DNA of 64,000 nt from a virus: IMG/VR virus record IMGVR_UViG_3300009081_000012, positions 12,982 through 76,981 of that record. The stretch is one strand, 5' to 3'. How positions within the stretch are numbered: the stretch's first letter is position 1; the number at the start of each line of letters is the position of its first letter. Under the pieces are notes generated by a model. The model had not been told where the DNA came from. It saw nothing but the letters and a program-made list of their open reading frames with translations, and did no database searches. The position numbers and the translations under genes are program-made. Positions 1,530 through 1,701 of this stretch are shown in pieces.

Positions 1530-1701
1530 TTGGCAAGTCCATACTTGAGGATTGTCCAGAGAGAGTAACGGTACGGGCAATGCGGTTTCTCTGACCTCTC
1601 ACCATTTTTGGTAGCCTGTGCCTCCTACTAGTCCCAGAGGTCTAATTTGCTACTCGGCGTATATGGATATATTTTGGGGCTTTCACCCATAGGCTTGCCA
1701 A
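1530..1701 (-). ncRNA. ~172-nt multi-stem structured RNA, unidentified
   Basis: Closing stem UUGGCAAG/CUUGCCAA; GGGU-GAAA-GCCC; UCCAUAU/GUAUGGA; GACCUCU/AGAGGUC; UACCA-AAAA-UGGUG; GAGUAGC/GUUACUC crossing CAGAGA/UCUCUG; fills the whole GC-richer spacer. Confidence 0.65.

Follow-up and report, generated by a model that had tools for sequence, protein, structure and literature searches.

Intercistronic structures that process or stabilise phage messages include the RNase III sites of T7 and the ribozymes of hammerhead-punctuated operons, the latter reportedly described by Perreault and co-workers in 2011. In both cases a folded RNA separates the cistrons of a single early transcript and lies just upstream of a ribosome-binding site. 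T4-type phages carry promoter-early stem-loop (PeSL) cassettes, small repeated regulatory modules with a sigma-70 promoter that sit between non-essential early genes; closely related strains gain and lose genes at these modules (Arbiol et al. 2010, PMC2839356). A further system of interest is the hatchet ribozyme (RF02678; Li et al. 2015, PMC4604424), for which a crystal structure is available (Zheng et al. 2019, PMC6561176). Its self-cleavage depends on Mg2+ and takes place at the 5′ base of P1. The invariant residues of the hatchet are C20 A21 A22, U28 G29 G30 G31, G63 C64 A65 G66 and A73 A74 A75, and its P2 helix pairs positions 23-27 with 77-81 (PMC6561176).

Here we describe a spacer in the early region of an uncultured giant phage that resembles each of these systems in part. 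Like the T7 RNase III sites and the hammerhead operons, it places a folded RNA between two cistrons of one early transcript and ahead of a ribosome-binding site; unlike them it is larger and more branched, and its processing role is putative. As with the PeSL cassettes, a neighbouring gene, here one of 75 codons, is present or absent between strains, whereas the spacer holds no promoter-like site and the element is single-copy. With the hatchet ribozyme it shares, at canonical spacing, the succession of a hairpin, CAA, a 5-bp P2, UGGG, GC(N)G, 6 nt, AAA, 1 nt and the P2 return strand. It also shares the sense-strand position in a long spacer between small phage genes, where the ribozyme would stay on the downstream RNA. 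In contrast to the hatchet, it has no P3-L3-P4 arm, its L1 loop is unrelated, its P1 has 5 bp instead of 3 or 6, its P2 contains one mismatch, and positions -1 and +1 are A and C.

On the sense strand of an early operon made up of exchangeable units, the spacer forms a real and discrete module that codes for no protein. Our preferred reading, to which we assign a probability of roughly 0.35, is that it acts in cis as a folded domain of the polycistronic early mRNA, with a role in processing, stabilising or insulating the message downstream.

The phage is represented by a 76,981-base IMG/VR virus record that is estimated to be 28% complete. We analysed bases 12982-76981 of this record, a stretch of 64,000 nt that we call the window, and coordinates below are window positions unless stated otherwise. 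The large terminase (49486-51237) shares 55-71% identity with those of uncultured phage contigs of up to 238 kb, and 28% at most with those of cultured phages. This DNA is present in sequencing runs of metagenomes from freshwater sediment, soil and wetland. Positions 1-3340, together with the 12.9 kb that precede the window in the record, make up a single long array of small minus-strand genes that have strong Shine-Dalgarno sites.

The two genes that flank the spacer both have Shine-Dalgarno sites; the stop codon of the 189-aa ORF occupies 1714-1716 and the 75-aa ORF starts at 1501. The stop codon is real, because four homologues share the C-terminus of the 189-aa protein, with the stop conserved in all four. 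A gene product of the spacer (1502-1713) was sought in the protein collection and none is on record. The reading frame of the 75-aa ORF is open for 41 codons upstream of its ATG (1502-1624, minus strand), through the 3′ half of the element, and this extension contains no ATG, GTG or TTG; it is most likely due to chance (probability about 0.14). A second frame, of 35 codons, has its AUG at 1605, an AUGA overlap with the next gene and a Shine-Dalgarno sequence that is poorly spaced at 15 nt away. It has no counterpart on record, and both codon changes in run X9 are non-synonymous. The small proteins encoded next to the spacer give no functional clue, and no anti-terminator protein was identified among them. 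The G+C content of the spacer (0.45-0.46) is slightly higher than that of its flanks (0.35-0.41), which we count in favour of a folded domain.

Table 1. Features of the spacer and of the related intercistronic cassettes. RNA positions (i) are numbered along the minus strand as i = 1714 minus the window coordinate.
Feature	Window coordinates	RNA positions	Strand	Basis or remark
Whole non-coding spacer, 212 nt	1502-1713		minus	ORF maps; between 189-aa ORF (2283-1714) and 75-aa ORF (1501-1274)
Hatchet-like core	1640-1713		minus	Rfam Hatchet 12.4 bits; residue comparison; descriptor scans
Closing helix P1, 5′ strand UUGGCAAG	1694-1701	i13-20	minus	pair probability 0.94-0.99
Closing helix P1, 3′ strand CUUGCCAA	1530-1537	i177-184	minus	directly abuts leader
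GGGU-GAAA-GCCC tetraloop hairpin	1677-1688	i26-37	minus	pair probability about 0.7
P2, 5′ strand UCCAUAU	1661-1667	i47-53	minus	pair probability about 0.7
P2, 3′ strand GUAUGGA	1538-1544	i170-176	minus	contiguous with P1 3′ strand
Helix GAGUAGC, 5′ strand	1649-1655	i59-65	minus	pair probability 0.22
Helix GUUACUC, 3′ strand	1563-1569	i145-151	minus	pairs with GAGUAGC
Crossing helix CAGAGA, 5′ strand	1588-1593	i121-126	minus	pair probability 0.63 as nested alternative
Crossing helix UCUCUG, 3′ strand	1557-1562	i152-157	minus	immediately 3′ of GUUACUC
Small hairpin UACCA-AAAA-UGGUG	1600-1613	i101-114	minus	carries TAYCA-N4-TGRTR motif
A/C-rich leader AAUAACAACAAUCAA and AAAGGAG Shine-Dalgarno of 75-aa ORF	1502-1529		minus	repeat families D2, D6
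Cassette copies	465-507; 1195-1237; record (L102) 10405-10450		minus	then AACAACAA(U/C)CAA leader and Shine-Dalgarno

The original prediction was of a multi-stem, probably pseudoknotted RNA at 1530-1701. Direct reading and helix enumeration find every one of its listed helices on the minus strand of this interval (Table 1), placed, as it had said, between a stop codon, that of the 189-aa ORF, and the leader with the Shine-Dalgarno site of the 75-aa ORF. P2 stacks directly on the closing helix P1. To these we add a helix that pairs GACCUCU with AGAGGUC (i72-78/115-121) and the small hairpin UACCA-AAAA-UGGUG. The preference of the G.U pairs for the minus strand is likewise borne out, as U53.G170 and G64.U146 turn into A.C mismatches on the plus strand. 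The pseudoknot fares differently: CAGAGA/UCUCUG does cross GAGUAGC/GUUACUC in an H-type topology, but this can be drawn and is not a demonstrated structure.

Of the helices, the 8-bp closing helix alone exceeds chance: in 5000 dinucleotide shuffles, 41 had both ends joined by a perfect helix of 8 bp (P about 0.008). The minimum free energy of the spacer is ordinary, at -46.6 kcal/mol versus -45.4 +/- 4.1 for the shuffles (z = -0.29), and the plus-strand fold gives z = -1.12. In the nested fold the interior helices compete with one another, with pair probabilities of 0.22, 0.13 and 0.63. Given an ordinary fold energy and an ambiguous interior, the description as multi-stem and pseudoknotted is therefore one of a drawable structure.

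Contigs from other strains show how the element travels. A 746-nt contig of run X6 (depth 15) agrees with 1524-1705 except for two differences and then joins 1257. The dominant strain of this run is without the 75-aa gene and its leader (1258-1523), the contig linking 1257 to 1524. A second X6 contig (depth 17) has about 82% identity over 1706-1897, with 40 substitutions and four gaps, and zero differences in 1676-1705, where it ends; farther upstream it aligns in islands only. In run X9 the homology again begins at 1524, with differences at 1566, 1580, 1581 and 1629. The break at 1524 is 6 nt outside the 3′ strand of the closing helix and both breakpoints lie 4-6 nt outside this helix, so the element behaves as a unit that does not depend on the gene after it. 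Its retention where this 75-aa gene is absent means that it is not a riboswitch for that gene. The near-identical block seems to run on downstream, so the element may belong to a mosaic segment, and its preservation is not proof of selection on it.

Four variants are known, of which one falls in a proposed pair and the others at unpaired positions of our model. The X9 change at 1566 (T>C) turns U62-A148 into U62.G148, so that the pair is kept, and the variant A85U breaks one helix of the computed minimum-free-energy fold. More broadly, the early region is shuffled gene by gene in the strains, as described for the PeSL-flanked regions of T4-type phages (PMC2839356). In the X6 strain the upstream genes align with the window in no more than short islands near gene starts and spacers.

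These data bear on a sober alternative, that the spacer has no function as an RNA structure and is leftover or filler sequence at a mosaic junction of a hyperplastic early region, with helices such as any sequence of 200 nt would supply, any function being exerted at the level of DNA, e.g. as a protein-binding site. The ordinary fold energy, the empty family and homologue searches and the gene-by-gene shuffling all agree with it. So does the occurrence of the element's palindromic TAYCA-N4-TGRTR motif also at 3677-3690 in the divergent promoter region, beside CTACCAGYAT repeats, which fits a DNA-binding protein. However, 212 gene-free nucleotides are unusual in so tightly packed an operon, where the other long spacers hold recognisable elements, and neither the significance of the terminal helix nor the position of both strain breakpoints just outside it is what filler would lead one to expect. 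We consider this alternative nearly as likely as the preferred reading.

The preferred reading, a cis-acting folded domain, draws on the arrangement of the leader. The leader AAUAACAACAAUCAA with its Shine-Dalgarno site occurs in four copies on the minus strand of the record, and three of these are preceded by a conserved module made of GCGUC, a 15-16-bp hairpin and a run of 4-6 U. The hairpins of this cassette show compensatory differences, and our cassette model R3 scores them at 62-68 bits on the minus strand versus 28-32 bits on the plus strand. At the fourth leader copy, the closing helix of the element stands where the cassette hairpin would. The element and the cassette are alike in their operon position, in the leader and ribosome-binding site 3′ of a helix and in a TAYCA-N4-TGRTR hairpin. 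They differ in size and architecture (172 nt and multi-branched versus a hairpin of 35 nt) and in the GCGUC box and U run, which the element does not have.

Under the preferred reading, the spacer would be a discrete, non-coding, sense-strand domain of a long leftward early transcript. The 8-bp helix, stacked on a 7-bp helix, would join both ends and set a large folded body directly 5′ of the unstructured A/C-rich leader and ribosome-binding site that follow a plain hairpin at three other operon junctions. Such an element may punctuate the polycistronic mRNA, and could insulate the downstream ribosome-binding region from upstream sequence. It might also mark or protect an RNA end, made either by a host nuclease or by the hatchet-like 5′ part of the element itself. 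Against a folded domain we count the z-score of -0.29, the competing interior helices, the small number of variants (only four) and the fact that model R3 does not list the element at E <= 10. We also count against it that the search for compensatory changes found near-identical strains only.

Two simpler relations to the cassette were tried and rejected. The element is not a copy of the operon's terminator cassette, having no GCGUC box and no U run and scoring negative with both R3 and a terminator scan; because there is no U run, it is not a terminator. A homology between the central part of the element and the cassette hairpin, suggested by eye and by MAFFT, is unsupported by R3. Elsewhere in the record, L102 6565-6580 reads GCGUCUU-A-AAGAUUUU, like a cassette from which the hairpin interior has been removed.

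Could the element instead prepare the polymerase for the hairpins that follow? A cis-acting anti-termination or regulator-binding RNA, comparable to HK022 put, lambda nut or the Bacillus EAR element, would either alter the polymerase or be bound by a phage protein at the UACCA-N4-UGGUG hairpin, ahead of the downstream U-tailed hairpins. All three U-tailed cassette hairpins do lie downstream of the element in the operon and none upstream, and the first of them comes straight after the element in the X6 strain. The hairpin-tip motif is common to the element and to these hairpins, and the insertion of a gene between them, as observed, is compatible with such a role. On the other hand, the spacer gives no Rfam match to EAR or any other family and no anti-terminator protein is found among the small proteins encoded nearby. 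The runs of 4-6 U are short, the terminators are putative, and the argument is one of position. We judge this quite improbable.

The motif TAYCA-N4-TGRTR has 13 matches in the window versus 2.0 expected, and those at 480, 1210, 1600 and 3677 cluster in the early region, where it also forms the tips of the operon's terminator-like cassette hairpins. At 3677-3690 it is a perfect TACCA-GTTA-TGGTA, located beside direct repeats of CTACCAGYAT (3593-3669) and between divergent early promoters. The palindrome region at 3590-3700 looks like a candidate regulator binding site, on DNA or on RNA. Two other structured-looking spacers of the operon, on the minus strand, have no Rfam match: at 427-585 a GC-rich hairpin (CCGCG-UAAAGG-CGCGG) is followed by a second hairpin before the cassette, and at 886-956 there is a two-fold element, GGGUCAGUCGCUUGACCCC...GCGACCCC.

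Searches for known families were run with Rfam over the window at the gathering threshold, and over 400-3900 and 1490-1725 at E <= 10. No family reaches its gathering score for the element, so it is not a catalogued RNA. The spacer has no match to a curated riboswitch or other catalogued cis-regulator, and ARAGORN finds no tRNA or tmRNA in 1-4000. Scans of the spacer (1502-1713) for sigma-70-like promoters and for terminators found none. The only above-threshold Rfam match in the window is a phage-encoded tRNA at 13966-14038 on the plus strand (65.5 bits).

Relatives of the element were sought more widely. Homologues were found neither among GenBank phages by blastn nor in 32 terminase-related IMG/VR records, searched by BLAST and with a single-sequence covariance model, R1. 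Exact-pattern scans of IMG/VR and GTDB genomes gave no copy, and the 15 matches of such a scan in JGI metagenomes are all unrelated coding DNA. Loci with the flanking proteins in IMG/VR and JGI hold no homologue either. No copy is thus known outside near-identical strains in IMG/VR, JGI metagenomes, GTDB genomes and GenBank phages.

On the original prediction's own proposal, the element would belong to a new ribozyme class or be a free-standing ncRNA unrelated to known families. The want of a family match, the discreteness of the unit and a probable hammerhead 1.1 kb upstream in the same transcript are all compatible with this. Yet no second example was found and there is accordingly no family; the fold energy is ordinary, the element has no promoter-like or terminator-like site of its own, and hammerheads are not a feature of this phage lineage. 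We hold a new class to be very improbable. The only ribozyme-specific signal in the spacer points to a known class, the hatchet, in an incomplete form, and not to a new one.

The hammerhead on which that proposal leaned is a type III-like motif at 2811-2873 on the minus strand, between ORFs of 143 and 69 aa. Stem I is closed and stem III, of 7 bp, is open; the cleavage triplet reads GUC, the boxes CUGAUGA and GAAAC are present, and four extra bases (AUAA) separate CUGAUGA from stem II. A copy in run X8 lies in unrelated flanks and is without two of the four extra bases. The motif lies in the same operon, but the argument built on it is weaker than stated, with a score of 23.6 bits against a cut-off of 48.5 (E = 4e-4 for the hammerhead family in the record) and no hammerhead in the 32 related phage records. 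In the spacer itself, a hammerhead match is not listed for 1490-1725 at E <= 10, and direct reading finds no CUGANGA, which with GAAA makes up the core boxes amid the three stems of this class.

Other classes were considered and set aside. HDV-like ribozymes are nested double pseudoknots in which P4 and J4/2, with the catalytic C, lie between the 3′ strands of P1 and P2. In the spacer the two crossing helices have 3′ strands that follow each other without a gap (i151|152), which leaves no place for P4 or J4/2, and this reading fails; Rfam gives no HDV-like match in the spacer. For the hairpin ribozyme, CAGAGAAAC equals the 9-mer of a loop B strand and GUA...UUAC follows a hairpin with a 3-nt loop. 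The geometry is wrong, with five extra nucleotides between the 3′ loop strand and helix 3 and no room for helix 2 or loop A, and there is no Rfam match to this class in the spacer. Known hairpin ribozymes have the loop B invariants R20 G21 A22 A23 A24 C25 and A38, flanked directly by helices 3 and 4, and the loop A invariants G+1 and G8, and the class has been found only in RNA (replicons) and never in DNA (PMC8216279). A MITE-like interpretation of the terminal inverted repeat is countered by the failure to find a second copy and by the lack of a target duplication.

The hatchet-like core occupies the first 74 nt of the spacer, and its hairpin starts immediately downstream of the UAA that ends the 189-aa ORF. 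In RNA numbering it consists of the hairpin CCAAA/UUUGG (i1-5/12-16), CAA (i17-19), a P2-like helix GCCUA/UAGAC (i20-24/70-74), UGGG (i25-28), 27 nt, GCCG (i56-59), a 6-nt spacer and AAA-U (i66-69). Matches are found at 13 of the 14 invariant core residues and every spacing is canonical, including the 5-nt P2, the 6 nt from G66 to A73 and the 1 nt before the P2 3′ strand. The linker residues C17 A18 A19 and U25 G26 G27 G28 are complete (block score 7/7). In the 3′ core (GCCG, 6 nt, AAA, U, UAGAC), the sole deviation is a C at position 65. The A65C mutant of the hatchet is active in vitro (PMC6561176), and natural hatchets also vary at this position, where some read GCGG. Four of the five P2 pairs form, the exception being a C21xA73 mismatch. 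In the X6 strain C1 and C2 are both changed to U; both pairs of the hatchet-like P1 are kept as G.U, and the change yields the consensus U1.

A self-cleaving ribozyme derived from the hatchet, with a drastically shortened P3-L3-P4 arm, would cut between 1714 and 1713, exactly after the upstream UAA stop. The 3′ strand, transcribed later, could then trap the 5′ part by forming the closing helix, so that the downstream RNA would keep a structured 5′-OH end. The residue matches and the X6 changes argue for it, and Hatchet is the sole ribozyme family that Rfam lists for the spacer (12.4 bits, E = 8.7 over all 4227 families). Natural copies also occur in a like setting, in long spacers between small same-strand phage genes.

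The specificity of these likenesses was gauged with a core descriptor (at least 13 of 14 core residues, at least 4 of 5 P2 pairs and a P1 of at least 3 bp), which was composed with the site already known. Run over 2.78 Mb of fetched sequence, it accepts this site, the natural hatchets and three re-alignments internal to them, and nothing else. Random sequence of 6 Mb yields eight sites, one of them with a P1 of at least 5 bp. In four related phage genomes (1.69 Mb, both strands counted) it passes two sites, a chance-level result that tells against the ribozyme. The expectation is about 0.2 per record of this size and about 2.5e-4 for this spacer.

Covariance models score the site at noise level. 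The Rfam score of 12.4 bits at 1640-1717 (minus strand) is well below the Hatchet gathering cut-off of 51 bits, a search of the whole record gives no Hatchet match at E <= 1, and our own model of 16 natural hatchets returns 8.0 bits, rank 12 in the window. The arm is missing. Between UGGG and GCCG there are only 27 nt, with a minimum free energy of 0 kcal/mol and no stable helix, versus 72-104 nt between the UGGG and GCRG segments of natural hatchets, all of which read GGGGC...GU-GCRG. This stretch forms no P3, including its G32.U62 pair, and no P4, and the UGAGAAU loop of L1 is absent too. The G32.U62 pair of P3 lines the active pocket next to G31-C64 (PMC6561176), and mutants that are L3-less or have P4 disrupted are inactive (PMC6561176). 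In the canonical fold L3 and P4 build the long H34 helix, and L1 makes a tertiary contact with L3. The hatchet fold of the 74 nt costs +2.8 kcal/mol versus -10.5 for the free fold, and a search of the 32 related phage records found no hatchet. On balance an active hatchet-derived ribozyme is unlikely.

The hatchet fold and the closing helices P1 and P2 of the spacer use the same bases and so are mutually exclusive; the three G's of the GAAA tetraloop hairpin are also those of the hatchet-like UGGG. The two folds might nonetheless be reconciled in a two-state RNA, in which an arm-less hatchet-type ribozyme would cut at the stop codon during transcription and the 3′ strand would then refold the molecule into a protective multi-helix cap. 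We regard this as a long shot. Such a molecule would be without precedent among hatchets, both in having no arm and in carrying a built-in conformational switch.

At present the finding is a single-copy sequence without comparative support, and its meaning turns on whether the core cleaves. If it does, catalysis would proceed without an arm that biochemistry and the crystal structure call essential, the range of hatchets would grow beyond gut phages to include giant phages of soil and sediment, and ribozyme cutting would be coupled to refolding in a natural case. If it does not, the element would be a private structured spacer, of value mainly as a marker of operons built from exchangeable gene-plus-leader modules.

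More than 119 canonical hatchets were found in IMG/VR contigs of 50-200 kb (loci L107-L225) from gut phages, mostly in sample 3300045988. They often occur in pairs within a locus, separated by about 2 kb, and occupy long spacers between small genes on the same strand. Two forms are seen, one with a 6-bp P1 and a UGAGAAU loop and the other with a 3-bp P1 and a GAAGA loop, and several hatchets of the latter form carry GCGG where GCAG is conserved.
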